From IMG/VR virus record IMGVR_UViG_3300028025_002279, positions 1 through 57,883 of that record: a DNA stretch of 57,883 nucleotides; one strand, given 5' to 3'. The position numbers were made by a program, and so were the translations under genes. This DNA is from a virus. Lineage: Duplodnaviria > Caudoviricetes. The first letter of the stretch is position 1. Every line of letters starts with the position of its first letter. The notes beneath the pieces are model-generated. The model was not told the origin of the DNA and did no database searches. It saw nothing but the letters and a program-made list of their open reading frames with translations. Positions 637 through 48,730 of this stretch are shown here, piece after piece.

Positions 637-656
637 TAACGATAAAAACTAAACAC

Positions 657-878
657 ATGAAAAAGTTACTACGTCTATTCGTTCTATCATTGCTATTCAT
701 CACCCTATTTGCTATTGCCTATGCTGTACTACCTACCATAGTATGGTTGTATGGTGGTGAGTTCAAGACTATCAGCCACAACTTAGCATACGTAACCTTT
801 GGTAGCTTGGCAATTGTAATCATGCTAGGCATACAATTCCATGAGACATTCGATTCTAACTTCTACGAGAAAAAATAA
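657..878 (+). CDS. hypothetical membrane protein
   Basis: 73 aa, two hydrophobic segments. Confidence 0.7.
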   Translation: MKKLLRLFVLSLLFITLFAIAYAVLPTIVWLYGGEFKTISHNLAYVTFGSLAIVIMLGIQFHETFDSNFYEKK

Positions 879-1091: not shown

Positions 1092-1105
1092 ACAAACCTT
1101 AAGTT

Positions 1106-1447: not shown

Positions 1448-1453
1448 TAAACA

Positions 1454-1481: not shown

Positions 1482-1500
1482 ACTTTTAAAATAATATAAC

Positions 1501-1731
1501 ATGTCAAAGAGTCTATTAGAAAAAGCTAACAATCAAGTATGGGATGCACTATTCAGAGAGGTGACTGACTACCCAAACACCACACTGAGGGTAATGAACA
1601 ATCTTAAATCAGTCAATTGGATATCAGACCTTAGGTTTGAGGATGTCCATTGGATAGTAAAAGAGGTACTACATAAGAGCTACTTTAACTATGGAGATAT
1701 ATACGACCTATTTCATAAAGAACAAAACTAA
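1501..1731 (+). CDS. hypothetical protein
   Basis: 76-aa ORF. Confidence 0.7.
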   Translation: MSKSLLEKANNQVWDALFREVTDYPNTTLRVMNNLKSVNWISDLRFEDVHWIVKEVLHKSYFNYGDIYDLFHKEQN

Positions 1732-1737
1732 TAACAC

Positions 1738-1890
1738 ATGATTAATGTATATTTTGAAACAACAAACGGATATTCAGAACTAGTTGCAACATTTGAATAT
1801 GAACAAACATATGTCAATTGTTTTGATTCGCTAAAACAAGAGTGCGAAAGAATGGGTTTTGACTTTATAACTGAATCATTAGAAAACTAA
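1738..1890 (+). CDS. small hypothetical protein (50 aa)
   Basis: hand-translated MINVYFETT...SLEN; ATAACAC-ATG leader. Confidence 0.65.
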   Translation: MINVYFETTNGYSELVATFEYEQTYVNCFDSLKQECERMGFDFITESLEN

Positions 1891-1901
1891 ATCAATAACA
1901 C

Positions 1902-2165
1902 ATGAACTATAACAAGATTAAAAAGATGCAACGTGAAATGGGATATTCCACGATGCAACAGCTAGTAGACAATGGTCAAGCATGGATGATGGAAGGTAGC
2001 GTAGGCAGGGAAGCTATGTACCTGCTAGAGATTGGTGCAATCATGCTACCCAAGAGACCACATCAAGACTACTATGGTAACACCATACCTTCACGTGATT
2101 GGCTCAAGGAAGGTAAAGGTACATTTCAGAATTCAGTTAACTTTTATTCACACATAAATCAATAA
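1902..2165 (+). CDS. hypothetical protein
   Basis: 87-aa ORF. Confidence 0.75.
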   Translation: MNYNKIKKMQREMGYSTMQQLVDNGQAWMMEGSVGREAMYLLEIGAIMLPKRPHQDYYGNTIPSRDWLKEGKGTFQNSVNFYSHINQ

Positions 2166-2169
2166 CAAC

Positions 2170-3117
2170 ATGAACAACTTTGCAGACAGCATCATTGGTG
2201 GTGCATTCGACGGACTACAGCTATCAGATAACGCTAACGCTGAAGCAGTAGCTACATTGCTAGATAGATTCGGTTTAAGGTGGTCAGTATCTAAGCAGGA
2301 ACTATACCTGCCCGATGGGACTCCTACTACATTCAAGGCTATTGTCAGAGATGACAACAAGCAGGTGTTCGCTACATGTAAGGATGGCTACACACCATAC
2401 CAAAATTCTGAGCTCGCTGAGATGTTGATACGTATATCTGAGAAGACGGGATACGATATCCATAGTGGTGGCATGTTCAATGGTGGTGGAAAGATATACT
2501 TACAGCTATCTACGGGCAACGAGATTAATGGTATCGGTCTCAACAAGACAAAGGTGAAAGGCTACGTGACGGGTATCAATGGTCACGATGGCACTACATC
2601 ACTCAAGTGGGGTGCTGTTAACTTTACCATCTGCTGTTCCAATACCTTTGCTGCCGCTAAGGGTAAGCTACAAAATACAGCTAGACACACAGCATCAATC
2701 CATGACAAGGTAGAGCGTAGCATCAGAGAGATTGAAGGTGTGACAAAGCAGGAGCAAACTATCTTCGAGCAGTTCATCAGACTATCTGAGGTAGCTGTTA
2801 CTTCTAGCAACATTGTTAGGATTGTAAAAGAAGTTACGGGTGTTGACATCAACACGCCACGCAGTAAAGCTGATGACATCTATAGCAGTTACGCTATCAA
2901 TAGGGCAGGAGAATTGACTACATCAATCTCTAAAGAGATGGCTCAGAAGGGTGAAACATTGTGGGGTCTATTCAGTGGCGTAACACACTACACCTCACAC
3001 GTAATGTCTACACCGAATCGTGAGAATGCTAGACTAGAATCTAAGTATGTTGGTAGTGGACTAACTATCGACAACGACGCATTCGCTAGTGTATTGAGCA
3101 TGGCTTCAATCGGTTAA
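2170..3117 (+). CDS. DUF932 / TIGR03299-like phage-plasmid protein
   Basis: W.V.K...VR.D...Y.P.QN, GG.F.GG.K, N.HDG, C.N, RHT and TLWGLF.GVT.Y..H motifs. Confidence 0.8.
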   Translation: MNNFADSIIGGAFDGLQLSDNANAEAVATLLDRFGLRWSVSKQELYLPDGTPTTFKAIVRDDNKQVFATCKDGYTPYQNSELAEMLIRISEKTGYDIHSGGMFNGGGKIYLQLSTGNEINGIGLNKTKVKGYVTGINGHDGTTSLKWGAVNFTICCSNTFAAAKGKLQNTARHTASIHDKVERSIREIEGVTKQEQTIFEQFIRLSEVAVTSSNIVRIVKEVTGVDINTPRSKADDIYSSYAINRAGELTTSISKEMAQKGETLWGLFSGVTHYTSHVMSTPNRENARLESKYVGSGLTIDNDAFASVLSMASIG

Positions 3118-3128
3118 CTATCATCATC

Positions 3129-3156
3129 GGGTGGGCAAATGCTCACCCTTTTTTTT
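3129..3156 (+). terminator. intrinsic terminator
   Basis: GGGTGGGC/GCTCACCC stem followed by T8. Confidence 0.85.
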
Positions 3157-3174
3157 ACCTCCAATTCATTCATC

Positions 3175-3252
3175 ATGAAAAAGCTACTAATTGTCACAAT
3201 CTTCTATACAGCCATTGTATTATTCAACCTGCACGCATGGGGAATCATTTAA
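3175..3252 (+). CDS. hydrophobic peptide (25 aa)
   Basis: MKKLLIVTIFYTAIVLFNLHAWGII. Confidence 0.4.
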   Translation: MKKLLIVTIFYTAIVLFNLHAWGII

Positions 3253-3322
3253 AACAGCATATTCTTTGCAACATTAACAAAGTTTTAACTAGTGTTTAAC
3301 TTTTCTTTAAGAACTCAAGCAG

Positions 3323-3330
3323 TAATTTTG
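3323..3330 (+). promoter_or_regulatory. Bacteroidota -7 promoter element
   Basis: TAATTTTG upstream of the ORF at 3353. Confidence 0.6.
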
Positions 3331-3352
3331 CCAATAATCAAAAACATATATC

Positions 3353-3529
3353 ATGAAAAGTAAAATCATTTCTCACATTGCTGTAGAAGAACTTTATTCA
3401 GACCAAGATGGTTGGTGGATTGTATTGAAAGATGGATACAATTATTTTGGATGCTGCTCATTTAGGGAGGATTCCTTAAGAAGACTATACGACTCACTAT
3501 CTCAAGTTAAAATTGGAAACCCTTATTAA
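3353..3529 (+). CDS. small hypothetical protein (58 aa)
   Basis: hand-translated MKSKIISH...GNPY. Confidence 0.6.
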   Translation: MKSKIISHIAVEELYSDQDGWWIVLKDGYNYFGCCSFREDSLRRLYDSLSQVKIGNPY

Positions 3530-3541
3530 AAAAAACACATT

Positions 3542-3676
3542 ATGAAACCAAACGAATTAAGAATGCTAGTCATTAAGAACTTTATTGAGTACTACACTAG
3601 CGATGAAAAAGAACGTCTTGAAATGTTAGAAGTGGCTATGAACTATTGCGAAGAGGTCGAAGTAGAATTTGAATAA
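3542..3676 (+). CDS. small acidic protein (44 aa)
   Basis: hand-translated MKPNELRM...VEFE. Confidence 0.6.
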   Translation: MKPNELRMLVIKNFIEYYTSDEKERLEMLEVAMNYCEEVEVEFE

Positions 3677-3692
3677 CCATAAAACATAACAC

Positions 3693-3884
3693 ATGAAAAT
3701 AGATATGACAAAAGGCTCAAAGAAATTGCTATTAAAATTTATAAAAGATAGCAAGGATTTAAGGGTTAAGTTTATTGAATCAGAATCTTTTGAAGAATTC
3801 TACCCAATAATTTTTGAAGTATTTGAATTTACCGATGCTCAGTTGGAGGAGGTAAAATTTGATTTCCTAAAAAGAAGAATATAA
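3693..3884 (+). CDS. hypothetical protein
   Basis: 63-aa ORF. Confidence 0.65.
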   Translation: MKIDMTKGSKKLLLKFIKDSKDLRVKFIESESFEEFYPIIFEVFEFTDAQLEEVKFDFLKRRI

Positions 3885-3908
3885 AAATTCTTCACTAAAA
3901 CAAATACT

Positions 3909-4208
3909 ATGAGCGCAGAACTACAAATGAGAACACTATTCAATGTATACTACGAACAATGTCCTCACGAGAGGATAAGGTATACAGCATCTGAATTCAG
4001 AGACAATCACCTTCAGTCTTGGATTGTCATGAATGGTATAGAGCTGTGTTACATGATGTATCAAGGTAAGCATCAATATATCTTCATGTGTAATAGATAT
4101 TGCCCTAAGCTAGGAGATGAAACATACTACTTTAAGACATATGAAGAGTGTAGCAAAGTTCTAAACATGGCAGAAGAAGAACTTATTGAATACGCATATT
4201 CTCTATAA
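3909..4208 (+). CDS. hypothetical protein
   Basis: 99-aa ORF. Confidence 0.7.
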   Translation: MSAELQMRTLFNVYYEQCPHERIRYTASEFRDNHLQSWIVMNGIELCYMMYQGKHQYIFMCNRYCPKLGDETYYFKTYEECSKVLNMAEEELIEYAYSL

Positions 4209-4225
4209 CAATAAAAATCAAACAC

Positions 4226-4624
4226 ATGAAACTTTACAACAGACAGTTAGAATCACTGAAGAAAATTATCTACGAACATTTAAAATCTCAGCCCGATGTA
4301 GAAATCGGTGACCTTAACAATTGCGTAGAAGAGGCTGACTATATTGTCAGAGAGTGGAAGATGAAACATAATATAGAAGTTATGTTTGACGAGACATCTA
4401 ACAAGCACTGCAATGATGTTGACGGAAACATACTTAATGTTGGTGATTATGTTATAGCTCTTGACGTCGATGACCTTCATGATTGTGACCTAGTTAGGGG
4501 AGACGTATTAATAGTTACTAATATAGATGACCCCGTATCAAACTATATAATATTTAGAAAAGATGAGGATGAAAAAGAATATGGATTCTATGGACATAGG
4601 GTACTAAGATTCAAACATCAATAA
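4226..4624 (+). CDS. hypothetical protein, possible C-terminal SH3-like barrel
   Basis: 132 aa; D.DGN.L.VGD.V pattern. Confidence 0.7.
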   Translation: MKLYNRQLESLKKIIYEHLKSQPDVEIGDLNNCVEEADYIVREWKMKHNIEVMFDETSNKHCNDVDGNILNVGDYVIALDVDDLHDCDLVRGDVLIVTNIDDPVSNYIIFRKDEDEKEYGFYGHRVLRFKHQ

Positions 4625-4634
4625 ACAATAAATC

Positions 4635-4850
4635 ATGAAACCATTAACAGCACAAAAGTTATTCGAATTACTTAACGAGTTAAAGATTGACGGCTACGAC
4701 CTAGAGAAGGTAACCATCAACTACCGAACTGACTCAGACTCAGACGTTGAGGTAATCACCTATGTTGGAGATGACCTATATGACGCAGAGACAAACAGCG
4801 TGTTAGAGTCTATTGTACTTATGGCAGACGCATCAGATTATGAACAATAA
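4635..4850 (+). CDS. hypothetical acidic protein
   Basis: 71-aa ORF. Confidence 0.7.
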   Translation: MKPLTAQKLFELLNELKIDGYDLEKVTINYRTDSDSDVEVITYVGDDLYDAETNSVLESIVLMADASDYEQ

Positions 4851-4862
4851 AAAACAAATATC

Positions 4863-5069
4863 ATGAATAATCAACACGAAGTAACAATCAATGCAGTAGA
4901 GCTAGCTTGTATCCTTGCAGAGGAGGAGCTAAATGACAATCATGGAGACTATATGCAAATCTATGTAGAAGATGATGAGGAGTCAACCTATACCGATGAA
5001 GCTCAGAAGATGTTCGATGAGCTGTACGACTACTACATGGAATTAATTAACGGAACTAAAGTAAAATAG
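4863..5069 (+). CDS. hypothetical acidic protein
   Basis: 68-aa ORF, very D/E-rich. Confidence 0.7.
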   Translation: MNNQHEVTINAVELACILAEEELNDNHGDYMQIYVEDDEESTYTDEAQKMFDELYDYYMELINGTKVK

Positions 5070-5070
5070 T

Positions 5071-5298
5071 ATGAACAATCCACATCAGTACAACTACACA
5101 CAACAGCTAGAGCATAGGCTCAGAATGGTTGAAGATGACTTGCATATATTGAAAAAGTTCATATTCGATAACAATCTAGCTAACGTATTTGACAAGTCAA
5201 CGTCTACATGTGACTCTGCTTGGTCTAATATAGTCAACATAGAAGTTGCATGCGACCTTAATGACGATACATCTCTGACTTGGGGAATGTTCCTATAA
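5071..5298 (+). CDS. hypothetical protein
   Basis: 75-aa ORF. Confidence 0.7.
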   Translation: MNNPHQYNYTQQLEHRLRMVEDDLHILKKFIFDNNLANVFDKSTSTCDSAWSNIVNIEVACDLNDDTSLTWGMFL

Positions 5299-5310
5299 AT
5301 AACTAAACAT

Positions 5311-5451
5311 ATGAATACTATTACATTTCTAGAAGAGACAAAGAAAAGCCTAATAGGTAAGAAAATTATAGACGTAGGAGATAACTACATCGAGCTGGAT
5401 GATGGATGTAGGATATACATATCGGAAGATGAAATCAATTTCTTAAACTAA
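5311..5451 (+). CDS. small hypothetical protein (46 aa)
   Basis: hand-translated MNTITFLEE...NFLN. Confidence 0.6.
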   Translation: MNTITFLEETKKSLIGKKIIDVGDNYIELDDGCRIYISEDEINFLN

Positions 5452-5462
5452 AAACAAATATC

Positions 5463-5708
5463 ATGAACTACAATTTCTTTCTATTCTGCAAGCTTTACGA
5501 TGTAATGATTGGTGTAGACTACTACTACGATGTGCTGTTCGAAGACCTTAAGGAACTATACAATAAGTTTGCGGATAGCGACTACAACAACCCGAACATG
5601 GGAACTTATGAGTGTATTGAGACGTACTTAAAAGATAACCATGCAGACATCATTAATAAATTCACAAGACAGCAGGAGAGTCTTGGCATAAAACACATAA
5701 ACGCATAA
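5463..5708 (+). CDS. hypothetical protein
   Basis: 81-aa ORF. Confidence 0.7.
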   Translation: MNYNFFLFCKLYDVMIGVDYYYDVLFEDLKELYNKFADSDYNNPNMGTYECIETYLKDNHADIINKFTRQQESLGIKHINA

Positions 5709-5711
5709 ACT

Positions 5712-5882
5712 ATGGCAAAGAAAACTTCTATCAGAGAACATCTTATTGACGCAATCCTTGAACTATCGGTTGATGAGTTCGAGTCTGAGCAGGACTTGAT
5801 AAAGCTGGCAAAGGAATCAGAGGAGGAACTAGTCTACCGAATTGTAGACATTGCGGAATACTATAAGGAACAAACCATATAG
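5712..5882 (+). CDS. small acidic protein (56 aa)
   Basis: hand-translated MAKKTSIRE...EQTI. Confidence 0.65.
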   Translation: MAKKTSIREHLIDAILELSVDEFESEQDLIKLAKESEEELVYRIVDIAEYYKEQTI

Positions 5883-5883
5883 T

Positions 5884-5970
5884 ATGCAGAAGATAACTAT
5901 GTGGCTGTCCATATTTTGGGCAGCCCTTCTTACAATCATCATAATCCTAAACATAAAAGAAAAAAAATGA
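5884..5970 (+). CDS. single-TM peptide (28 aa)
   Basis: MQKITMWLSIFWAALLTIIIILNIKEKK; ATGA overlap with the next gene. Confidence 0.5.
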   Translation: MQKITMWLSIFWAALLTIIIILNIKEKK

Positions 5971-6173
5971 GCAACTTAAAATTCTACGTTATCAACCTTA
6001 GACTTCTGGATGAAGACGATGCTAGCCTAGACTTTGGCAACATGCCAAACTATGAGTTTATGACCATAGCGGCAAAGTATGGAGAAGTATATTCACCTAC
6101 ATCATTTGAGAACTTAATTAACAACGATGACTTCGATGCTGTCAACTGCTTCATCAGAATCATTGAAGATTAA
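5967..6173 (+). CDS. hypothetical protein
   Basis: start moved to the ATG at 5967 (MSNLKFY). Confidence 0.7.
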   Translation: MSNLKFYVINLRLLDEDDASLDFGNMPNYEFMTIAAKYGEVYSPTSFENLINNDDFDAVNCFIRIIED

Positions 6174-6205
6174 TTTGTTTGATAACAAACATTTAACTAA
6201 CTTTG
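6174..6205 (+). promoter_or_regulatory. Bacteroidota sigma70 promoter (-33 TTTG, -7 TAACTTTG), near-leaderless
   Basis: TTTG 6174-77, 20-nt spacer, TAACTTTG 6198-6205, ATG 4 nt later. Confidence 0.75.
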
Positions 6206-6209
6206 AACA

Positions 6210-6437
6210 ATGATTAACAAACTAATTGAAATTAACGACCAACGCAGTGCTAAACTTATGGTTGCCTGCGGACAGCTAGGTGCATACCAATCAATGATTA
6301 TATATGCTATAAAATGTCTCAATGGTAAGACTATAGCAGATGCTGAATCAGTAGCAAAGTATCTTGAAGAAAAACAAGATGAACTAATTAAAGAACAAGA
6401 TTTATTAATATTTAAAACGCACAACTATGAACTATAG
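6210..6437 (+). CDS. hypothetical protein
   Basis: 75-aa ORF. Confidence 0.7.
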   Translation: MINKLIEINDQRSAKLMVACGQLGAYQSMIIYAIKCLNGKTIADAESVAKYLEEKQDELIKEQDLLIFKTHNYEL

Positions 6438-6672
6438 AGTAATTGGTGAGCGAATAATGAATGCTCACGACGATAACCAAGTTGATAGACATGAGTCTGC
6501 ATTTACTTCATATACAGATGCAGTAGACTACTATATATCTACAGTGTCTCAGGTAGTTGAAGACATGGCTGACTTAGGTGGTGACTTTGTCTGCACACTA
6601 GTATGCGACAAGGATGATGATACTGTAGAAGTAATGAAGAGACATGTAATATCTACAACTGTATTGTTATGA
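6427..6672 (+). CDS. hypothetical protein
   Basis: 81-aa ORF. Confidence 0.7.
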   Translation: MNYRVIGERIMNAHDDNQVDRHESAFTSYTDAVDYYISTVSQVVEDMADLGGDFVCTLVCDKDDDTVEVMKRHVISTTVLL

Positions 6673-6914
6673 CGAATATAGAGAAACTAAAGTTTGCTGT
6701 TGACATATTATCTTCCCTAGTGGAGGCTAACTATGACAAGGCAGATGAATTTAAAAACATACAGCTAATTGCTGAACTAAATTGGAAGTCTATACCACAA
6801 GCGTATAAGTTTCAAAAATCAGTTATAGCATCAGCAACAAGAACTGATATCTATAAACTAAATTCAACAATAGTAATCGACATAAGAGATGTTGGATTAT
6901 TTCAAATAATGTGA
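6669..6914 (+). CDS. hypothetical protein
   Basis: 81-aa ORF, ATGA overlap. Confidence 0.65.
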   Translation: MTNIEKLKFAVDILSSLVEANYDKADEFKNIQLIAELNWKSIPQAYKFQKSVIASATRTDIYKLNSTIVIDIRDVGLFQIM

Positions 6915-7291
6915 GCATGAATGCATATGTAATCCCCGGCCTTAAGCATAGAGATGTAACAAAGCAATACTTCGTACAAAAGAGAGGTATACCAATACAG
7001 GTAGTAATAGAAGAAGCATGTAAGGTTTTCAATGCAGACCCAGATAAAATACCAAAGAAAACTAGAGCTCAAGAGGTAGTAAACGTAAGGCATTTCGTAT
7101 CTTGGTTCTTAGTAAAGCAGATGGGTATGACATTGAAAGCTGTTGGTGTTGATGTATTAGGAGGTAGAGACCACACTACCGTAATTAACAGCATAAGGAA
7201 GTTTTCTAATCTATACGATACGGAAGAGATGTTCAAAGATAATTCAAATTTAATAGTAGAAAACTTAATGTCATGGACAAAGAAACTTTAG
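6911..7291 (+). CDS. stand-alone DnaA C-terminal (domain IV) HTH protein
   Basis: R..EVV..RH, then LKAVG...LGGRDHTTVINSIRK (DnaA signature GGRDHTTV). Confidence 0.85.
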   Translation: MSMNAYVIPGLKHRDVTKQYFVQKRGIPIQVVIEEACKVFNADPDKIPKKTRAQEVVNVRHFVSWFLVKQMGMTLKAVGVDVLGGRDHTTVINSIRKFSNLYDTEEMFKDNSNLIVENLMSWTKKL

Positions 7292-7560
7292 TGTCAGTAA
7301 TAGCAGAAGTATTTGATGTAGAGAAAGACTTTATGAATAGGAAAGTTAGGAAGAGGAGGTATACATATCCAAAGAAGGCACTATGTATGTACCTATACAA
7401 TAATACAGAGCAAACGTATGAGTACATTGCAGAGTATATGGGATTTAAGAATCATACTTGTGCACTATACCATGTAAGGAGTGGACAAAACCTATACGAT
7501 ACATTTGAACCATTTACAAAGAAGCTTGACATTGTATACGAAAAACTAAGAGAACTATGA
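7273..7560 (+). CDS. second DnaA domain-IV-like HTH protein
   Basis: VIAEVFDV...RKRRYTYPK..CMYL...TYEYIAEYMGFKNHTCALYH parallels DnaA domain IV. Confidence 0.65.
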   Translation: MDKETLVSVIAEVFDVEKDFMNRKVRKRRYTYPKKALCMYLYNNTEQTYEYIAEYMGFKNHTCALYHVRSGQNLYDTFEPFTKKLDIVYEKLREL

Positions 7561-7892
7561 CTGATGGACAAAGAGAATCAATCTACATTATATACGTAAA
7601 TGTATGTAATGCTTTAACCTATGCAGAGGTAATGCTTAATGATGATGTATCTAAATCCGTTAAGGACACTATACGTGTATATAGGGATAGACTTAGGTGG
7701 ATTAAGAGAAGTATGGACATGAAGGTGGGTACTGATAATTCTATGGATGTAGACATCCTAAGATTTGATGGACTAGTGAGGCTGTTATCTTCTATGCCGG
7801 AACAATACGCAGATAGATTGGAAAACCATATAATCAAGTTCCTTGAAGACTTAGATGAAGAATTAAAAAGTGGGGACGTTCCCGTCCCCTAA
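7557..7892 (+). CDS. hypothetical protein
   Basis: 111-aa ORF. Confidence 0.7.
   Translation: MTDGQRESIYIIYVNVCNALTYAEVMLNDDVSKSVKDTIRVYRDRLRWIKRSMDMKVGTDNSMDVDILRFDGLVRLLSSMPEQYADRLENHIIKFLEDLDEELKSGDVPVP
7864..7890 (-). terminator. intrinsic terminator of the inverted holin-like gene
   Basis: minus strand GGGGACG-GGAA-CGTCCCC followed by ACTTTTT. Confidence 0.75.
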
Positions 7893-7894
7893 CT

Positions 7895-8053
7895 TTACTT
7901 CTTTACAGATACAGACCAAATGGCTCCGATAAGAGTCATCACTGCACCAATAACTTCAACAATCAAAGATTCGTCTATAAGACCTTTTGATACTGCAAGG
8001 CCACCAACGAATGTCAATGCGTGTCTGATAAGACCTGTTAATTTTTCTTTCAT
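7895..8053 (-). CDS. two-TM holin-like protein (Pam3-gp28-like), 52 aa
   Basis: hand-translated MKEKLTGLIRHALTFVGGLAVSKGLIDESLIVEVIGAVMTLIGAIWSVSVKK; has its own promoter and terminator. Confidence 0.75.
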   Translation of the reverse strand: MKEKLTGLIRHALTFVGGLAVSKGLIDESLIVEVIGAVMTLIGAIWSVSVKK

Positions 8054-8067
8054 AAAAAACATTTTGA

Positions 8068-8075
8068 CAAATTTA
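8068..8075 (-). promoter_or_regulatory. -7 promoter element
   Basis: TAAATTTG on the minus strand, 14 nt before ATG 8053. Confidence 0.7.
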
Positions 8076-8129
8076 ATTACTTTTTTTTAGAGGATATATT
8101 AATTTCATAACCAATTAAAAATCAATGAC

Positions 8130-8372
8130 ATGACTCCAATGCAAAAGTTACAAGCAGAGTTTATGAATCTCAGAAACATTCCAGATAATGAGAGGAACTA
8201 TCTGATAAATCTAATATCAGAACTAATTGATGAAGAGAAGTTAGTTATCATGAAGTCTTATGCTGATGGTATAGAGGCACTGAGAAAGTCTATAACAACT
8301 GACGAATTGTATAACAGCTACTTAGAATACTACAACCAAAAACAATATAATGTTCACAACAAAGTTTATTAG
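8130..8372 (+). CDS. hypothetical protein
   Basis: 80 aa; MTPMQ.L...EK..I..SY pattern common in Bacteroidota phages. Confidence 0.7.
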   Translation: MTPMQKLQAEFMNLRNIPDNERNYLINLISELIDEEKLVIMKSYADGIEALRKSITTDELYNSYLEYYNQKQYNVHNKVY

Positions 8373-8601
8373 ACTACCGATACGAGTGTATAACAAGGAT
8401 ATGATGGATGTTGCAGGCGTATCTGAGGAGATTGATACCTACGAGATGGTAAACCCATTTCATATATCTTCCTATAGGCCTTCACAAGAGCCGGAAGGAT
8501 GTACCTACATATCATTCAAGGACGGCACTGGTATGATGGTATATATGGAGATAGAAGAGTTCGAGAGGTACATGGATTCACATAAAATATTTAAACAATA
8601 A
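8350..8601 (+). CDS. hypothetical protein (FlbD-like pattern)
   Basis: VNP.HI..Y...T.I.F.DG...V...IEE. Confidence 0.6.
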   Translation: MFTTKFIRLPIRVYNKDMMDVAGVSEEIDTYEMVNPFHISSYRPSQEPEGCTYISFKDGTGMMVYMEIEEFERYMDSHKIFKQ

Positions 8602-8604
8602 CAC

Positions 8605-8805
8605 ATGACTAATTCGCATTTCGCAAATCAAAATCACTACGATAGGATGCTGTTCATAGCAAGACTACACCACGCTATATGGCATGACCAAGATACCTAC
8701 AATCGTGTAGAAGACATAGTAAAGTCAGTAGAGAATAAACTACCACAAGCTAAATACTTTAACCATGAAGACAATATACATACTAGCTCCAATAATGATA
8801 GGTGA
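8605..8805 (+). CDS. hypothetical protein
   Basis: 66-aa ORF. Confidence 0.65.
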   Translation: MTNSHFANQNHYDRMLFIARLHHAIWHDQDTYNRVEDIVKSVENKLPQAKYFNHEDNIHTSSNNDR

Positions 8806-9861: not shown

Positions 9862-9958
9862 GTCAATCCGATTGGATAGTTGCGTTGTTCACTCGGGTTT
9901 GATTTAAGAGAACCCTCTTTCATTGAACCCATACAGACGCAACCTGTGTGGGTTTTTT
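9862..9958 (+). ncRNA. ~95-nt leader/sRNA ending in a terminator whose loop pairs with the 5' region
   Basis: 11-bp stem 9926-36/9944-54 plus T-run; loop ACGCAAC is complementary to GTTGCGT 9879-85. Confidence 0.6.
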
Positions 9959-9960
9959 GT

Positions 9961-10310
9961 TTTGACTAGGGTCTTAGAACGGTTTCACCCCTGCTGTTGG
10001 TATCTAGATGCAGCTAATGAAAGATTACGAGTTCTTTAGAGAAAGCTATGTATGATTTGGACTAGGGGCTTGGCCTTTGTTGGCCAGCCCTCTGGAAGTG
10101 TTTTTCTACGTAGCAATATAGGTAAGACGAAAATCCATGCAATGTCCCTGACCTGACAACATGGTGCTGGAAGCTAGCAATAGTTCACATAGTCAAACGC
10201 CTACCGTCGCAGTAAACGGATACTCTAAATAGCACTGAAGTAGAAGAATACCCATAGTTCTACTGAAAATTGCAGGACCTAGTGTTTTCCAGCAGTAAAG
10301 GTCGAAGTGT
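9961..10310 (+). ncRNA. candidate large structured ncRNA (~350 nt)
   Basis: no ORF, multiple hairpins including a GCAA tetraloop, long-range end pairings. Confidence 0.55.
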
Positions 10311-11431: not shown

Positions 11432-11761
11432 ATGGAAAGGCTACAAATCAATTCATCATCAAGCGTAGGTTTAGCATCAACAGAACCAATCACATCTTCT
11501 AATCTATCTGGCTCAGGTATAACAAATTCATCTTACAGCAATCAGATTGTACCAAACCTTATGTTTAGAGAACCAACAAAGCAGGAGCTACTTATGAGGT
11601 ATAACATTAGCATAGAGTTTATTAATGTTGGATGCATAGTGTCTGTTGGATGTAAGAAGATAGCGTTCTCTAGTATAGAAGAAGCTATGAAAAGCATAAA
11701 TAAATATGTGAATAATCCTAAGCAGGAAGCTGAATATTGGGAAGGTATTTTTGGAAATTAA
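11432..11761 (+). CDS. hypothetical protein
   Basis: 109 aa; I.F...GC.V.VGCK.IAF. Confidence 0.75.
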   Translation: MERLQINSSSSVGLASTEPITSSNLSGSGITNSSYSNQIVPNLMFREPTKQELLMRYNISIEFINVGCIVSVGCKKIAFSSIEEAMKSINKYVNNPKQEAEYWEGIFGN

Positions 11762-11772
11762 AACTATAAACT

Positions 11773-11964
11773 ATGGCACAACAAATAGCGACAGTATCAT
11801 TATTCATATTCATTATAGTTCTGCAACATTTATATAATTGGTCTTGTAGAAAGATTTATGATAAACTTACAGACGATAGCGTACCATTACTACTTGCATT
11901 AACTACAGTTGTATTTGTGATAACACTTGCACTTTGTGAATTATTACTAGATATAAATAAATAA
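11773..11964 (+). CDS. hypothetical membrane protein
   Basis: two hydrophobic segments. Confidence 0.6.
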   Translation: MAQQIATVSLFIFIIVLQHLYNWSCRKIYDKLTDDSVPLLLALTTVVFVITLALCELLLDINK

Positions 11965-11967
11965 ACT

Positions 11968-12171
11968 ATGGCACAATACATGGAGGGATTTAGGCTTTCA
12001 AATCACATAGACTACTGCGGACCGGAATCATCTTTTTCTGATAATGAACACAAGGAGGTAGTAAGGGTACATGCAAGATTCTTTAGCGTATCACATAAGG
12101 AGCAAAGAGAAGTACTTATGTTACTTATATGGTGGTCTGTAAGACATTACATTAAAATACTATTCAAATGA
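11968..12171 (+). CDS. hypothetical protein
   Basis: 67-aa ORF. Confidence 0.6.
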   Translation: MAQYMEGFRLSNHIDYCGPESSFSDNEHKEVVRVHARFFSVSHKEQREVLMLLIWWSVRHYIKILFK

Positions 12172-12377
12172 CACCAAAAGAAAAAGCAGAAGATTTATTT
12201 AGTACATATAGGTATGCATTATCAGTGCCTAATGCACCATTAGGTCAGAGTAAGGATGATGTAGCAAAACAATGTGCATTAATAGCAGTAGGTGAACTAC
12301 TAATACTTGCAGGTTTTTACGATAAAAAGGTTTGGGATTATTTAGAAGAAGTAAAACAAGAAATAGAAAAACTATAA
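12168..12377 (+). CDS. hypothetical protein (MTPKEKA...AKQCALIAV type)
   Basis: pattern recurrent in Bacteroidota phages. Confidence 0.75.
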   Translation: MTPKEKAEDLFSTYRYALSVPNAPLGQSKDDVAKQCALIAVGELLILAGFYDKKVWDYLEEVKQEIEKL

Positions 12378-12380
12378 ACT

Positions 12381-12587
12381 ATGCCAGATATCACAATGTG
12401 TGAAGGTACACACTGCCCTATAAAAGAAAACTGTTATAGGTATACAGCTAAACCAAATGAATATAGACAGTCTTATTTTGTAACACCACCATACAAAGAT
12501 GGTAAGTGTGAACACTTTTGGGGTGAAGCACAGGAGTCTATACTTCAACAGCTTACTGATATAGTAAATGGTAATAAAAATGCATGA
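12381..12587 (+). CDS. small Cys-rich (putative Zn-binding) protein
   Basis: DITMC....CP....CYRY...QSYF...C..FW. Confidence 0.75.
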   Translation: MPDITMCEGTHCPIKENCYRYTAKPNEYRQSYFVTPPYKDGKCEHFWGEAQESILQQLTDIVNGNKNA

Positions 12588-21830: not shown

Positions 21831-22062
21831 CTTTATTAGTATTTGTAAATTTTTCAGCAACCTTACTAATCGTTCCAAAACCTAAACTTCCTGTACATAT
21901 AAACACAACAGCATCTATAAGGCCTTCATGTGGGGTAATCTCCTTATGTGATGCTGCACTAATAACTAGGCATACGCATAGAGACAAACCTGACAATACT
22001 CCAACAAATCTGTTTGAGGAGTAATTACCTTTCTCATCCCTAAATATTTCTAATATCCTCAT
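21811..22062 (-). CDS. putative holin
   Basis: D..G..SS.RF.G, two TM segments, overlaps the endolysin start. Confidence 0.65.
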   Translation of the reverse strand: MRILEIFRDEKGNYSSNRFVGVLSGLSLCVCLVISAASHKEITPHEGLIDAVVFICTGSLGFGTISKVAEKFTNTNKDEYKAG

Positions 22063-22622
22063 AGTCTTATATTTAATCCTACACTATAAAATGGCTTTCC
22101 CCCACCTAGGCTAAACGAACCACTAAATATCTTATTATTCTTTAAATACATCACTGAAGGACCCAAAAATATGCCTCTTTCTGTTAAATCCATTCTAGAG
22201 CCCAAATAAAGCCCATTACGACGAATTTGACCCACGTATATAGTATCCCTATACGAAGGGAACATTAGGTCAGCAGAGAGCATCCTATTGACTATTGAAT
22301 TACGGCTTATGGTATCCTCAATATATAGGTATCCAAACTTACCTACATCCACCGTATCTACGTATACAGATTTTGCATAATATTCCCTGAGTACAGAATC
22401 CATCATGGCAGAATCTAAATATGGTACGTCTACGTAGATAGTAGTATCCTTGATTAAGGTGTCTTTTGGCAGGGTAACTTTAAATGGTACATACTGTGTA
22501 TCTGTTACAGTCCTGTATATTTCATATGACTCTCCTTCAATAACTACAGGCTCCTTATTCCATTCTACATACAACAGATAAGAAAGCACTAGAATCGTAA
22601 GTATAAATATTATATCTCTCAT
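22059..22622 (-). CDS. N-anchored envelope protein of the lysis cassette (spanin-like?)
   Basis: N-terminal TM, DT(I/V)Y repeats, amphipathic beta-rich C-terminus. Confidence 0.55.
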   Translation of the reverse strand: MRDIIFILTILVLSYLLYVEWNKEPVVIEGESYEIYRTVTDTQYVPFKVTLPKDTLIKDTTIYVDVPYLDSAMMDSVLREYYAKSVYVDTVDVGKFGYLYIEDTISRNSIVNRMLSADLMFPSYRDTIYVGQIRRNGLYLGSRMDLTERGIFLGPSVMYLKNNKIFSGSFSLGGGKPFYSVGLNIRL

Positions 22623-22626: not shown

Positions 22627-22634
22627 CAAATTTA
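22627..22634 (-). promoter_or_regulatory. -7 promoter element, near-leaderless
   Basis: TAAATTTG-TACA-ATG. Confidence 0.7.
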
Positions 22635-22644
22635 AGCTATTTTA

Positions 22645-22673
22645 CAAAAAGGGGGGTCCTAGAAAAGACCCCC
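22645..22673 (-). terminator. intrinsic terminator
   Basis: GGGGGTC/GACCCCC stem followed by TTTTT on the minus strand. Confidence 0.85.
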
Positions 22674-22703
22674 AATCAACAAACACATGAAAAACTATCT
22701 TAT

Positions 22704-23156
22704 TTATTCAGCCTCCATAGGAATCACTTCTACTTCCTCTACTTCATCAGCCTCTACTTCTTCTTTAGGGAAATTAAGTCCTTCTACCCAACCCTCAAGA
22801 AATCCATATCTTTCAATACCTTCATGAGAAAATGTAAATTGGTAAAACTCAAAAGTATCATCTAATAGATTTCTAATATCCTTATTGAGTTTTTTCAAGC
22901 CTTCCTTGCTAAACTTATACCCACCCTTGTCATCAAGGATAAGTGCACCAGATTCATCTGTGTGTGCGTTGTCTAACCTCAAGTCTTCAAGCTTCTCATT
23001 GTAAGCCTCTAATTCTGCCTTAATTTTAGCTCCAATCTTCTGTAGCTTTTTTACACCCTTAGTGTTTTCTGCAACATGTTCCTTAGAGCCAGATAAAATG
23101 TTGATTGCATTTGCGAGCTGTATTAGCTCCTGATACGTCTTAGTTACTTTTGCCAT
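22704..23156 (-). CDS. hypothetical late protein
   Basis: start moved to ATG 23156; TATTTTTG at 23177-84. Confidence 0.75.
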   Translation of the reverse strand: MAKVTKTYQELIQLANAINILSGSKEHVAENTKGVKKLQKIGAKIKAELEAYNEKLEDLRLDNAHTDESGALILDDKGGYKFSKEGLKKLNKDIRNLLDDTFEFYQFTFSHEGIERYGFLEGWVEGLNFPKEEVEADEVEEVEVIPMEAE

Positions 23157-23220
23157 GGTTTTTGGTATTTGTAAAGCAAAAATAGTGCCAAATTTGTTTT
23201 TTACCAAATAAAATAAACAC

Positions 23221-23244
23221 AAAAACCCAGCATTTCTGCTAGGT
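23221..23244 (-). terminator. intrinsic terminator
   Basis: CCTAGCA-GAAA-TGCTGGG-TTTTT. Confidence 0.8.
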
Positions 23245-26500: not shown

Positions 26501-26816
26501 TTGAACCTGTTGTATTTGCTGATGCACCTGTTCCACCTGCTGAATTTCCTATCGCTATATTGAAGTTACCAGTAGTATTAGTAGTTAGTGCATTAGAACC
26601 AATAACAGTATTTCCAGAAATATTACCTCCACCCCTTCCAATAGTTATTCCCTGAACAATTAAATTACCGCTAAATGCAGCAATACCTTCAACATCTAGT
26701 GGATAAGTTGCAACTTTTCCTACGCCAAGTTTTGCTATAAAGGAAGCATTACCTAAAGAATCATAGGTAATTACATTATTTATATTAGAAGTCCTTCTCT
26801 GCTTATTCATTGCCAT
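23553..26816 (-). CDS. tail fibre protein 2
   Basis: G/S/T-rich, YKG.WNA.TN.P, VTSVNG.TG.V.L, three LNIP.YT repeats. Confidence 0.85.
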   Translation of the reverse strand: MAMNKQRRTSNINNVITYDSLGNASFIAKLGVGKVATYPLDVEGIAAFSGNLIVQGITIGRGGGNISGNTVIGSNALTTNTTGNFNIAIGNSAGGTGASANTTGSNNIFIGADSIGISATESNRSWIGNASTTSTWLGGNLLLGSTFSTGERLQVTGAAKITGAVTLTNLSGVGTRILITDASGNISTQPTSTYITSLTGEATSSGGGATTVTLVNSSVIGKVLSGLNISSGSITSSDSILSAFGKLQGQIDGLQGGTVYKGSWNASTNTPTIVSSTGSQGDYYVVTTAGTTNINGVSSWAVGDWIIFNGSIWEKIPNVDSITSVNGQTGAVVLTTANITESGNLYYTDARARAAISLTTTGSSGAATYSSGVLNIPNYTISGLGGVTSSRTLTINGTALDLSSDRSWSVGTVTSVNATVPTGFTVGAAVTSSGNITIGFASGYSLPTTASQANWDSAYNNRILTVTTNGSNGSASLIANTLNIPTYTLVGLGGMSNPFSSSLGQIIYSNSAGAPLALSGNTTTTKKFLSQTGDGVNSDAPFWSTIAISDVTGAIGLTSLSATSPLIYNNGTGVFSIQQASNLQNGFLSAVDWTTFNGKQTQITLTTTGNSGESTFNPISGALNIPQYTLSGLGGMSNPMSSLGDMIYSNSSGAPQRLAPNTTTTRKYLSMVGDGAFGAIPTWETITGITGSGTINYIAKFTPNGTTIGNSILSETSNVVTIGFGGSASEYGLEIGNGRTGNGFAYIDLIGDTTYTDYGFRIIRESIGPNSSSILSHRGNGSLRLFSEDSGSIQMKIGASTYFNLDTSGNFHLGGSGASARVQISGGSLSSGGTGAMISANLTNGRLDTYDVSSVNCIHTFFDAHSYEISAGSTNGWVSGISITGRNAVLNPATIRMYTYSTQKFQINGAGQLQLNSYTSLSSFTGTPQGYLAFDSVGNIITSNPSVGRNTRITFSAEAPNTWLAMPSALSFFDSSTGFVTQADLTAYNQVRLIVNKQATAGAGSSKIILRYQAISGSPFTASSYSDIGTSEVSVSVNVTNTILVTSWINMAAGAKDDVWLTILGINGDDTISPQFGNIYAEFRYNP

Positions 26817-27171: not shown

Positions 27172-30100
27172 TTAATAAAATGCGTTCCAAGTTGTTCCAT
27201 TATAACCGTAATGTTTATTATCTGTTGTGTCATATACTACTAATCCAGCAGCTGGTGTTGCTATTGCGTTTCTTTCTGTTGTTGTCATTCTTGGAGGAAG
27301 GAAACCTTGAGTAGTAGAATCAACTTGTAATTTAGCTGAAGCATTAATGGTAAAAGTATTAACACCAACATTGCCACTTGAATTTATATAAAATACACTT
27401 GTGCCGATTGTCCCAGCCGTTGCGTTTTGATATATTCCAAATTCATTCGCAGATGCAGCCCATAATGCAACTGCACCAGCACCGCTTGATTGTAATTCTA
27501 TAAATGCATTACCTCCACTATTTCTAAAGTTCGCTACTCTTTGGTTAGCACCCCCTAAGTTACCACCTATTGCAGTGTACCCCGTTATCTTCGCAGTGCC
27601 GTTGACTTGGAGACGTTCGCCGCTGTCGGTGTAAGTACCTCCATTTTGTAATAATAAGTTACCAGTTCCACTAACAAAAGCACCATATTGTGTTGTGCCA
27701 CTAATAAATCTTATTGTACTTGCAGCGGTTATTGATAATCCTCCTAAATTAGTTACTGTAAAACTAGCATCTCCATTATCAGCCGTTCCAGCCCTTGAGA
27801 GTAATAGTGTTACGTTACCCGGTGCTACAAACCTTCCAAGTGTTGCCGTTCCAGTTCCTTGAACATCAAGTTTATACGAAGGATTTGTACCAATACCAAC
27901 ATTACCATTTCTATATAATACAAGTTGATTATCTTGACCACTTGCTTGTAGTTTTAGATTTGTACCAACCCCATCGTCATTCGCATAAATACCCGTTGTT
28001 GTTGCAAGGGTAAAGTTTAAAGCAAGTGAACTTGTAGTACCATTTTTCAATTTTATTGTGTCTGTGAACTTCGCAGTGCCAGTGACTTGTAGACGTTCTC
28101 CGCTATCTACAGCAGCAGCACCTACTCTAAAGTTACCATTAGCATAAAATTTAGCTACCTCTGTTGCGTTTGTTGTTATGATTAAAGGAGTGCTTGTTCT
28201 TGTACCGAAATATGTTTCAGTTGCAGTATTGTTCCAAGATGCTACTCTTGTACCATTAGTCATTAAATCAATATTACCACCATTTGTAGCATTGTTTACT
28301 GCAAGTGTTGTATATCCTGAAATAACTGTTGGCGTGTATGTACCAAATCCAATATTACCAGAGGTATCAATAATCATTCTTATTGCTCCACCTGCAGTTG
28401 TATCACCTATAAAAAATTTATTTGAATCATTACCAGTTGTAGAACCTCCAATACCTAACGTCATTTCCCTACCACTTGCCCCAGTATTCTTAAAAATCAT
28501 ATAAGAATACCCAGCCGTTGAGGTACTTACGATTGTATGAGTCATTAACCCAGCACCAGTCAATGTTGTATTACCTCCAAAAGCAGTCGCCCCCGTCACC
28601 TTCATTGTCCCCGTCACTTGTAGCTTCTCGCCTGAATCGGTTGTGCTGCCGATTAGTAGGTTTGCATTGAAGAAGTTTATTGCAGTACCCCCCATATACA
28701 AGTTCCATCTACCAGTACCACTTGCTATATCACCATAAAATCCATAGTTGGTTGTTGCACCAGTTAAAGAAGAATCAGCATAAAATCCAAACTGATTGGA
28801 CACTGACCCACCAGCAGTTACATTGCTAAATGTTGTAGACGCAAAAGTTGAATAATGCCTTATGTTTGTTAGTGCAAAGTTAGCAGAAGCAGTACTTGCA
28901 TTAGTTTGATATAAAAATGCAGTAGATGTTACATCTGATTGAATAACACCATCACTTGCTATACCATATGATAAAGTTGCACCAGTTATATTTTTTGTTG
29001 CTCTAAATACAAACCCAGTCAAACTTGTACTCCCAATCCCAAATGACCCAGCCATATAGTTGTTGGCAGTGCCCTGTCCATACAATCCCCATCCGCTATT
29101 GTTGCTCCATTCTATACTTCTCCAATCAGCAGCAGCGGTTAGGGTTGGGTTAACGTATAAACCACGAGTAATACCGTTTGCACCTCCCGTTTGGTTAATA
29201 GTACCAAGAACTTGCAACATTGTGTATGTACCCGTTCCGCTTGTTGGTGCGTATCCGTGTGCTAAATTTAAAGTACCACTCGCTCCACTTGTTACTGTTC
29301 TTGTACTTGCATTATATCCACCTATTTGTACACCATATCCAGCAGTATCAAATGAACCAAATAAGATATTTAAATTCAATCCAGCAACATCAACAGTATT
29401 ACCAGCATTGCTTGATACTATATAATTGTTTGTACTTGTCCCAAAAAATAAACCATTTCTTAAAATAGCTGAACCATCATTTCTTAATCTTAATAAGTTT
29501 GTAGATGCACTATCTTGAACAGTTAATCCTATACTCGCACTTGTAGCACCACTTCCCCTCATTAACGTATCACCAATCACTTGTAACTTCTGCCCCGAAT
29601 CAGTCGCACCAGTGCCGATACCGAAGTTGCCAGTAGCGAATATTCTTGCACGTTCAGCTGGAGTGCCAGTAACCGCACCCATAAAAGTTAATGCGTTACT
29701 AAAACCTATTTCAGTTAAACCAGTTCCATTTCTATATCTTCTAAAATATCCATTAACAGTTGCTCCGTCTTCACTTAATGCAAATTGCATTAAAGTTGTT
29801 GCATCTATTGTCCCAAGATTACCTACACGAATTGTTGTAGCCCCAATGAAATCCTTTTGTACTTGTAAATTATCTGCAAAAAATCCAGTACCTTGAACTT
29901 GTAATGCTCTTGTAGGTGCATTTGTCCCTATACCCAATCTAAAATTAGTCGCATCCCAAAACAAGTTATTATTCCCAGCTTGTGTAGTCGCACCAGTGAA
30001 GTATGCAACTTGACCAGCAGCACCACTACCCGTTATCCCAGCATCTGCACTTGGTGCCCATATCGTTCCATTATATTTTAGAACTTGACCAGCAGTAGCA

Positions 30101-47757: not shown

Positions 47758-47790
47758 CAAAAATCCCTCTGCCAAGAATGGCAAAGGGAA
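47758..47790 (-). terminator. intrinsic terminator
   Basis: TCCCTTTGCCA/TGGCAGAGGGA stem followed by TTTTT. Confidence 0.8.
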
Positions 47791-47824
47791 TAACCAATCA
47801 AACCATATGAAACACGAAGCTATG

Positions 47825-48730
47825 TTAGTCAGCCATACTTTTTAGCTGCATATAAAATTCTTTACCTTTCTCTGTTAAACACAACTCAGCCAAATGTTTG
47901 ACCGCATCTTCATTGTCTGGTATTTGGGAAATAAACTTCTTTGTATCTCCCCAGATTGCCTGACCTTTGCTTGTGCTTAAATCAATTAAGTTTAAGGCAA
48001 TTGCTTTCTTAATTACATATTGGACTTTAACAAGTGGGTTATTATAAGTATTTATAAAAGTATCAGGGTAGCTTTCAGCATAACTCAAATAGTCTACCCT
48101 AATTGCCTTTTCACCCCTGTTCTCACCAAACTGATTTTTCTGTCTAACTCCTAAAAACTCAGCATGTGGATACATTATCTCAACAGGAGCATCCATTGCT
48201 AGTTTCATTGCAGACATTCTAACTTCCGCCTTATTGATAGCCTGCTCTTCCTGTTCTTCAAAATTTACTATCGTATATACTGGCAAAACATGCTCCATTC
48301 TGTTCTTCTTCTTATTATACATATTACTGCTAGTAAGAAATTTAACTAATGATGTTTTGTTAGCAGGTACTCTAAGGATACCATTTACAAACCTAATCTG
48401 AGGCATAGAGTTCTTTTTATTATCAGAAAGATGCTCTTGCTCATCAACAAAAATAGTATTTACACCCTCTAGGTATCTTATATTTCTTTCTGTCTTGGTT
48501 TCTTCATCAAAGATGATGTCCGTATTTCTTAAAAAGTAATTTTCTGGATATGGACTTTTTCCGGGACTTGCGTAGTATACTTTATTCACTAGTTGAAATA
48601 TGTATTCTGTTGGCTCTCTCTTCTTAGGTGATTCTATTACTACGTTAGGGAATTCTGAAACTTCTACATTAGATACAACATCTACTATGTTGCCATTTTC
48701 GTCTAAAGTCTTCTTGTTTTGCTTTGCCAT
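47825..48730 (-). CDS. capsid-adjacent structural/assembly protein
   Basis: R.IRY....TIFVDEQ, I.F.NG.L.V; follows the major capsid gene. Confidence 0.65.
   Translation of the reverse strand: MAKQNKKTLDENGNIVDVVSNVEVSEFPNVVIESPKKREPTEYIFQLVNKVYYASPGKSPYPENYFLRNTDIIFDEETKTERNIRYLEGVNTIFVDEQEHLSDNKKNSMPQIRFVNGILRVPANKTSLVKFLTSSNMYNKKKNRMEHVLPVYTIVNFEEQEEQAINKAEVRMSAMKLAMDAPVEIMYPHAEFLGVRQKNQFGENRGEKAIRVDYLSYAESYPDTFINTYNNPLVKVQYVIKKAIALNLIDLSTSKGQAIWGDTKKFISQIPDNEDAVKHLAELCLTEKGKEFYMQLKSMAD

Follow-up and report, generated by a model that had tools for sequence, protein, structure and literature searches.

A conserved G/U-rich 3'UTR segment upstream of an intrinsic terminator in a Flavobacteriia-type phage, a candidate base-pairing RNA directed at gene starts without Shine-Dalgarno sequences

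A 30-nt segment of the minus strand (E1, positions 22674 to 22703), located between the stop codon of a 150-aa phage gene and the terminator of that gene, was found to be conserved above the neutral level, to be complementary to the start regions of several plus-strand genes and, by predicted pairing energies, to favor plus-strand over minus-strand starts, and no structure was predicted for it. Our preferred explanation, held tentatively, is that E1 may be the G/U-rich single-stranded part of a base-pairing RNA derived from the 3' end of the transcript and aimed at C/A-rich leaders that lack a Shine-Dalgarno (SD) sequence. The narrower model, in which E1 would specifically silence early genes, is rather unlikely. 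A 3'UTR element that acts in cis or is bound by a protein is nearly as likely as a base-pairing RNA.

The stretch of DNA analyzed, referred to as the window (G000), is a phage record of 57.9 kb (57,883 nucleotides) with a GC content of 36.6%. The plus-strand genes occupy 0.2-20.2 kb and include many small ORFs together with a primase/helicase and exonucleases, and the minus-strand genes (20.2-57.9 kb) encode the terminase, the portal, structural and tail proteins and an amidase endolysin. No tRNA genes were found in the window. Genes were called by a simple longest-ORF procedure that accepted ATG only and a length of at least 40 aa. The portal protein matched 87 phage records, all of them at less than 31% identity. 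The first word of the organism name was Flavobacterium in 68 of these records, Cellulophaga in 15, Tenacibaculum in two and Maribacter in one, and the names or recorded hosts of the matches point to one of these genera in every case save one, a record of an uncultured Caudoviricetes. An SD-like 4-mer at -18 to -4 was present in just 2 of the 88 called genes, and the leaders were composed of 53% A and 8% G. The motif TAnnTTTG, which we take to be the -7 promoter motif of Bacteroidota, was located no more than 60 nt before 12 minus-strand and six plus-strand starts. Because of the hosts of the portal relatives, the SD-poor and A-rich leaders and the TAnnTTTG motifs, a Bacteroidota (Flavobacteriia) host is a reasonable premise for this phage, and the A-rich, SD-independent mode of initiation that the initial annotation had assumed is in agreement with these data. 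No near-identical phage records of the window were found, nor were prophage or host relatives of the portal gene detected among genome contigs. The two sequencing runs listed were both of DNA.

Several additional features of the gene organization were observed. Four intergenic terminators of the minus strand (22627-22673, 23177-23244, 47750-47789 and 48752-48790) each have a TAnnTTTG motif within about 25 nt, just before the next ATG, and the structural and lysis block therefore looks split into several units made of a terminator and a host-type promoter. Many minus-strand genes open with ATGGCA and plus-strand genes favor ATGAA, so the start styles differ between the two strands. Linker families are repeated among the start regions, and AACACATG represents one such family. 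Near-identical leader cassettes are carried by early-gene starts, ATAAACTATGGCA in four copies and AAAAACAAATATCATGAA in two, and were located at 5705-5717, 11760-11781, 11961-11976 and 12368-12383, and also at 4850-4867 and 5450-5467. These cassettes could be recombination boundaries or shared translation signals. Moreover, a conserved non-coding stretch (9880-9966, plus strand) was noticed in the gap between the ORF end at 9824 and the ORF start at 10340. Two hairpins are present in this stretch, a small one (GGGUUU...GAACCC) and one of 12 bp with a U-run behind it, and the stretch as a whole folds at -25.8 kcal/mol (z = -2.9). It is nearly identical in the related genomes G002, G005 and G008, and is possibly a structured terminator or the gene of a small RNA.

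E1 reads AUAAGAUAGUUUUUCAUGUGUUUGUUGAUU and constitutes the 3'UTR (22703-22674) of a minus-strand gene at 22704..23156, whose 150-aa product belongs to phrog_1401. The ORF listed for this parent gene (22704..23222, with the stop codon TAA at 22706-22704) begins at a TTG. The true start is most likely the ATG at 23156, as judged from the sequence of the relatives L001-L003, in which an in-frame stop precedes the ATG in the stretch that matches the TTG extension. No family beyond phrog_1401 and no Pfam assignment was obtained for the parent protein, and its PDB matches were at chance level only. Immediately after E1, an intrinsic terminator (22652..22673, minus strand) is formed by a 9-bp hairpin with six G-C pairs, read from 22673 to 22652 and followed by a T-rich tail, CUUUUUGU, with CTTTTTGT at 22651-22644 directly after the hairpin. 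The location of E1 between the parent stop and the terminator was therefore as the initial annotation had described it. A Bacteroidota-type promoter-like motif, TAAATTTG (22627..22634, minus strand), lies 4 nt before the ATG (22622) of the next gene, which encodes a 187-aa protein of no family (22059..22622, minus strand) and is followed by an 83-aa ORF and then by the amidase endolysin.

On the other side, an upstream terminator (23225..23244, minus strand) precedes the parent gene, and the promoter-like TATTTTTG at 23184-23177, a TAnnTTTG motif, is found 20 nt before the parent ATG. With a promoter-like motif of its own and a terminator on each side, the parent gene appears to be a self-contained unit, so that it may follow its own expression schedule. 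Its neighbors are tail genes and lysis genes, and its "late" expression is an assumption made from the strand and these neighbors only. No exact TAnnTTTG was present directly before E1; near-matches, judged by eye only, are TAGTTTTT for E1 and TAGCTTCG for the second 3'UTR, E2, described below. Rfam searches of the whole window and of the E1 region gave nothing at or above the gathering score, the best sub-threshold result being L20_leader (23.7 versus 58.7 bits).

Relatives of the parent protein were found at 21 IMG/VR loci and 80 metagenome loci. In total, 104 related loci had both the parent protein and a readable 3'UTR, and contained 51 distinct UTR sequences. These relatives are metagenomic contigs, 30-87% complete, and the further variant types in IMG/VR consisted of one 9.7-kb fragment. 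Most of the listed variants showed the same arrangement of parent gene, short UTR and hairpin with T-run. A hairpin and T-run was present in every relative at the position of the E1 terminator, with differing stem sequences, and both the terminator stems and the downstream genes varied among the UTR types. Among 20 distinct UTRs from the closer relatives (at least 61% protein identity), TTTCATG was found just after the stop in 12, CTCATAG in three and neither in five, and TCAT was kept in 15 of the 20. Three clearly homologous types of E1 were recognized: TTTTTCATGTGTTTGTTGATTGG in the window, TTTCATGTGTGTTGATTCG in L037 and G007, and TTTTCATGCGTGTTGATTCG in L035, G005 and G008.

When the window was compared with G007, G005 and G008, the 4-fold sites of the parent gene were 42-46% identical, and about 18 of the 21 aligned bases of the UTR were identical (about 86%, P ~2e-4). 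Likewise, the whole intergenic stretch showed no substitutions and two 2-nt indels between the window and L001-L003 (80-87% protein identity), while the flanking codons differed freely. The identity of the UTR is far above that of the 4-fold sites, and E1 is therefore under purifying selection. The UTR together with the last ~20 coding bases folded no better than shuffled sequences in 10 out of 10 variants (z from -0.57 to +1.23); E1 is thus predicted to be single-stranded and accessible, and its conservation is not explained by a helix. A MAFFT/RNAalifold analysis of 16 variants of the UTR plus terminator misaligned the groups and recovered four terminator pairs, two of them with changes on both sides. 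A segment that is conserved but neither structured nor coding suggests that the RNA or, with less likelihood, the DNA is recognized in a sequence-specific manner.

The complementarity of E1 to gene starts was as the initial annotation had reported it, to within 1-2 bases: perfect over 14, 13 and 12 nt at ORFs 657, 4226 and 3693, and partial at ORFs 1902, 1738 and 8605. Exact complements of E1 were located, all on the plus strand, in the start regions of ORF 657 (73 aa; 14 nt, 651..664), ORF 4226 (132 aa; 13 nt, 4219..4231), ORF 3693 (63 aa; 12 nt, 3688..3699) and ORF 1902 (87 aa; 10 nt, 1897..1906), the last of which gave the best predicted duplex with E1 (-19.9 kcal/mol). ORFs 1738 and 8605 have AACACATGA in common with the E1 complement. 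The 14-nt exact match, AAACACATGAAAAA, was found at 651-664 and 22681-22694 only. The count of AACACATG in the window was seven on the plus strand and zero on the minus strand; six of the seven copies correspond to ORF starts (657-8605) and the seventh is the E1 site. These six starts belong to one sequence family, so they are not six independent matches.

The near confinement of AACACATG to plus-strand ORF starts would also be expected if E1 were the start of a plus-strand micro-ORF, an alternative that had been named from the outset, or a functional plus-strand start region. The E1 complement in the plus-strand reading, AATCAACAAACACATGAAAAAC, does resemble a plus-strand start region, and an ORF of 46 aa that starts inside E1 (22687..22827, plus strand) is open from 22687. 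Against this, neither the frame nor the peptide is conserved. In L001-L003, a 2-nt indel that directly follows ATGAAAAACTATCT alters the frame beyond codon 5, which gives 58 instead of 46 aa, and only four codons (ATG AAA GTA TTA TAA) are left in L037 and G007. The ORF is, in addition, antisense to a conserved gene, and no plus-strand promoter-like motif was seen nearby. It was judged not to be a gene, and a plus-strand function of this kind is highly improbable. The frame of the minus-strand mini-ORFs at E1 also changed between types. As a separate observation, in the L033-type relatives (L033:1915-2000) the ATG within the UTR and the one that opens the downstream gene share a reading frame with no stop between them, a feature absent from the window and from the other types.

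Taken by themselves, the long perfect matches do not stand out from chance. When 14-mers common to 87 start regions (-15 to +12) and the masked non-start DNA were counted, three were observed versus 2.2 ± 2.1 expected from 60 block-wise dinucleotide shuffles in which the local composition was kept, and at least one common 14-mer appeared in 80% of the shuffles. The 14-nt match alone therefore falls within genome-wide chance. This is what would be obtained if E1 were an ordinary spacer between stop and terminator, and its matches were those that scanning 58 kb turns up. The membership of the six targets in one family, which reduces them to one coincidence, is in line with this explanation, and so are the position of the E1 site as tenth among the non-start ATGs ranked by a weight matrix built from plus-strand starts, and its result by 8-mers in common with the starts, in which E1 only tied for first with three others among all 24-nt windows. 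Furthermore, an unrelated 15-nt exact copy of the start of gene 26816, ATAAATGCATTACCT, was found as an inverted copy within the upstream gene, at a distance of about 700 nt (26802-26816 on the minus strand versus 27500-27514 on the plus strand). This match is probably due to chance and shows that such lengths occur.

The predicted pairing energies were analyzed with a threshold of ≤ -15 kcal/mol, using RNAduplex values, in which accessibility is not included. E1 paired with 10 of the 55 plus-strand start regions at this threshold, versus 0.58 ± 0.93 for 400 shuffles of E1, none of which was as extreme. E1 also ranked first, both in pairing count and in mean energy, among 2241 natural non-start ATG-anchored sites, 4.5 SD from the mean. 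With the full UTR, the threshold was passed by 13 of the 55 plus-strand starts versus 0 of the 32 minus-strand starts, and by no start when two other minus-strand 3'UTRs were used as controls. The pairing of E1 with the minus-strand starts, its own included, was weak (best value over the 32, -12.8 kcal/mol). The specificity is nevertheless low, because any U/G-rich RNA with a CAU pairs with A/C-rich leaders. AATCAA, considered as a special leader motif, was enriched, yet no more than other A-rich hexamers. The candidate targets are located at 0.6-8.6 kb and E1 at 22.7 kb, and the longest match is 14 nt.

The second-best of the 2241 natural sites was E2, which paired with 9 of the 55 plus-strand starts, so the top two anti-start sites are both in minus-strand 3'UTRs directly before terminators. 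This coincidence of location is not expected of an ordinary spacer, nor is a UTR identity that far exceeds that of the 4-fold sites, nor the retention of E1 beside differing terminators and downstream genes. Chance as the whole explanation is for these reasons unlikely.

The pairing with multiple starts was also analyzed in the relatives, where it was weaker. Genome G002 is 84-93% identical to the window over most of its length and its E1 is identical, but it keeps only two of the six AACACATG starts (657 and 1902); the leaders differ in the orthologs of 4226 and 8605, and 1738 and 3693 have no homolog. Thus, the candidate targets turn over while E1 stays fixed. Three E1 sequence variants in five genomes each paired with their own plus-strand starts better than their own shuffles did. 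The rank relative to natural sites was lower, however, with values of 5-21 among 1919 sites for G007 and 16-35 among 1997 for G005, and by 8-mers in common with the starts E1 was outside the top 8 in G002, G007, G005 and G008. The longest exact start matches in G005 and G008 were 9 and 8 nt, respectively. The E1 variant of these two genomes contains ACGCAUG, yet CGC-ATG starts numbered 0 of 42 and 1 of 36. The earlier interpretation is supported in part only: in the relatives the predicted pairing with multiple starts loses force, and in one of them four of the six AACACATG targets were lost or changed.

A preference for the starts of the own genome was observed in a shuffle-normalized cross-genome matrix (top-3 score), in which four of the five variants were best on the starts of their own genome, with own-genome z values of -2.7 for the window, -4.8 for G007, -4.2 for G005 and -3.6 for G004. 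The probability of this result is ~0.007 if the five genome groups are equivalent. The remaining variant, L124, comes from a fragment of 9.7 kb with 10 starts, and its best score was not on its own genome. The preference, seen with both top-3 and top-5 means, was carried by one to three start regions per genome, and by overall mean energy only two of the four variants from longer records were best on their own group. Some of the top-ranked starts were orthologous across genomes, namely those of a 67-aa gene (G005 and G007) and of the 452/470-aa, 87-89-aa and 132-aa genes, and such conservation of rank is expected anyway because orthologs keep ATGAAA-type starts. A compensatory change at -2 (A-to-G) was considered on the basis of two anecdotes, in the 67-aa and 87-aa orthogroups, and was rejected, as it was contradicted by G005_36801 and by the CGC-ATG counts.

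E2 (47790..47824, minus strand) is the 3'UTR of the gene at 47825..48730. Its layout and composition are similar to those of E1: it is G/U-rich, UUUCAUAUGGUUUGAUUGG, reads ...GUGUUUCAUAUGGUUUGAUUGGUUAU and precedes a strong terminator (47789-47764), which is followed by the promoter-like motif TATATTTG and the next ATG. Of the 33 bases of E2, 30 were identical in relatives with 60-64% protein identity, versus 37-51% at 4-fold sites (P ~1e-6). The variable part was the CAU at its center, which is lost in G005, G007 and G008. E2 paired with plus-strand starts better than its own shuffles in five out of five genomes, and no conserved target was found within the five phage genomes, the matches being 11 nt at most. 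A possible upstream hairpin of E2 was weak (-3.1 to -6.6 kcal/mol) and inconsistent between variants, and the 79-nt fold of E2 including the terminator had a z of -4.6. The E1-like motif was present on two of the five minus-strand intergenic terminators in the window, and at the same two positions in G005, G007 and G008. E2 as a true sibling of E1 was rejected: the similarity between them is marginal, with an alignment score of 19 that was reached by 4% of 5000 shuffles. E2 illustrates the recurrence of conserved G/U-rich 3'UTRs among these phages; the anti-AUG idea is not confirmed by it. The two genes whose 3'UTRs are E1 and E2 have a 14-nt start region in common, AAAACCATGGCAAA (23149-23162 and 48723-48736, minus strand).

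The end of E1, like that of E2, reads TTGATTGG, with the next TAnnTTTG motif at a distance of about 44-45 nt in each case, and the whole intergenic region is conserved. Both facts would suit a DNA-level site, at which a transcription regulator bound to E1 would act on the TAnnTTTG motif ~45 nt downstream. However, E1 has no dyad symmetry, and the motif is missing from the two other minus-strand terminator-promoter junctions. The L035-type relatives keep E1 even though the downstream gene and flank differ, and the similarity of E1 to E2 is, as mentioned, marginal. Regulation through the DNA is thus distinctly improbable.

More weight is given to a cis-acting element of the 3'UTR, which is a real possibility although we do not favor it. 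Such an element could be a site for an RNA-binding protein or a ribonuclease, or a determinant of 3'-end stability or termination, and its likeness to start regions would be a by-product of U/G-richness plus one CAU. The conservation of E1 and its lack of structure would suit this kind of sequence-specific recognition equally well. E2 is conserved even more than E1, yet precisely its CAU varies and it has no long conserved target in the five genomes; the start-region targets of E1 turn over while E1 is unchanged, and both segments belong to units that are self-contained, each with a promoter, a gene and a strong terminator. By contrast, the motif is not general to terminators, since only two of the five in the window carry it, and the retention of TCAT in 15 of 20 E1 variants and the preference of four out of five variants for the start regions of their own genome are better accommodated by base pairing. 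No known factor or motif was identified for a cis-acting role.

In the base-pairing explanation that we prefer, E1 would be a selectively kept single-stranded segment in the 3'-terminal part of a phage mRNA, immediately before the intrinsic terminator, and would serve as the pairing (seed) region of a putative 3'-end-derived RNA. This RNA might arise by processing, as a fragment of ~55-60 nt that the terminator hairpin would protect, or it might be the 3' end of the mRNA itself. It would pair with the C/A-rich SD-less leaders and AUG-AAA starts of mRNAs from the plus-strand replication/early module, and possibly with host mRNAs, and the pairing would block the access of ribosomes. Inferred parts of this model are a stable small RNA, pairing in vivo, late expression of the parent gene and the flagged genes as true targets. 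On a wider scale, Flavobacteriia-type phages might carry G/U-rich "anti-leader" RNAs in the 3'UTRs of strongly terminated genes (E1, and perhaps E2) that, upon transcription of these genes, would blanket the C/A-rich SD-less starts of replication and early genes, and perhaps host mRNAs too, a generalization that we consider speculative and on the unlikely side. G/U-rich seeds that act against C/A-rich elements in many mRNAs are known from DapZ and GcvB. To our knowledge, no Hfq-type chaperone is to be expected in Bacteroidota.

Conservation downstream of a stop codon and beyond the terminator itself can mark the seeds of 3'UTR-derived sRNAs, as described for CpxQ (PMC9438474). E1 is located between a stop codon and its own intrinsic terminator, as are the enterobacterial 3'UTR-derived sRNAs CpxQ, DapZ and SdhX in that account (PMC9438474), and it is conserved above the neutral level and predicted to be accessible. 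For these three sRNAs, the same source describes a 3'UTR that is more conserved than the coding region and a repression of the targets through pairing close to the ribosome binding site. Unlike them, E1 is phage-encoded, its candidate targets are SD-less, and neither a processing site nor a promoter was identified for it. A closer parallel in terms of host is offered by FopS and GibS of Bacteroides thetaiotaomicron, which are presented as sRNAs made of a single-stranded stretch plus a terminator that repress by pairing with translation initiation regions (PMC11697453); the same design, in a Bacteroidota host, is proposed for E1. According to that source, FopS and GibS are transcribed from independent genes, each with a promoter of its own, and have their seed at the primary 5' end, in which they differ from E1, and there is no sequence relation between them and E1, nor an Rfam family at the gathering score.

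Phage-encoded sRNAs, among them c4, sar and StxS, have been reviewed (PMC12197685). In P1/P7 c4 and P22 sar, as presented in that review, the expression of a phage mRNA is timed by a phage RNA that masks its ribosome binding site, which is the likeness proposed for E1, and each has one defined target, at the same locus or opposite, with designed complementarity (PMC12197685). In contrast, the action of E1 would be in trans, directed at many starts at a distance of 14-22 kb through matches of no more than 14 nt. Neither is E1 a cis-encoded antisense RNA of the sar/OOP type, as it does not lie opposite its candidate targets. The same proposed outcome is known from T4 RegA, a translational repressor that shuts off many early mRNAs by occupying their start regions; RegA is a protein, whereas the agent proposed here is an RNA. 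In Staphylococcus aureus icaR, as in E1, a segment of the 3'UTR is complementary to a translation start region; the icaR segment is described as pairing in cis on its own mRNA (PMC3868564), whereas E1 pairs poorly with its own start. No 3'UTR RNA of a phage with many early starts as its targets came up in the literature search, including the material consulted from the review of phage sRNAs (PMC12197685), and this is no claim of its absence from the literature.

If the preferred explanation were true, E1 would constitute the first case, in a phage of Bacteroidota, of a phage-encoded translational silencer that is embedded in a 3'UTR and has multiple targets. It would represent a temporal control built on SD-independent initiation, in which one short G/U-rich RNA distinguishes plus-strand from minus-strand leaders by their composition, and an RNA counterpart of T4 RegA that exploits the leader-composition-based initiation of Bacteroidota. 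Even with the wrong targets, E1 and E2 are candidate regulatory RNA or protein-binding elements, whose conservation among uncultured freshwater phages is well above that of synonymous sites.
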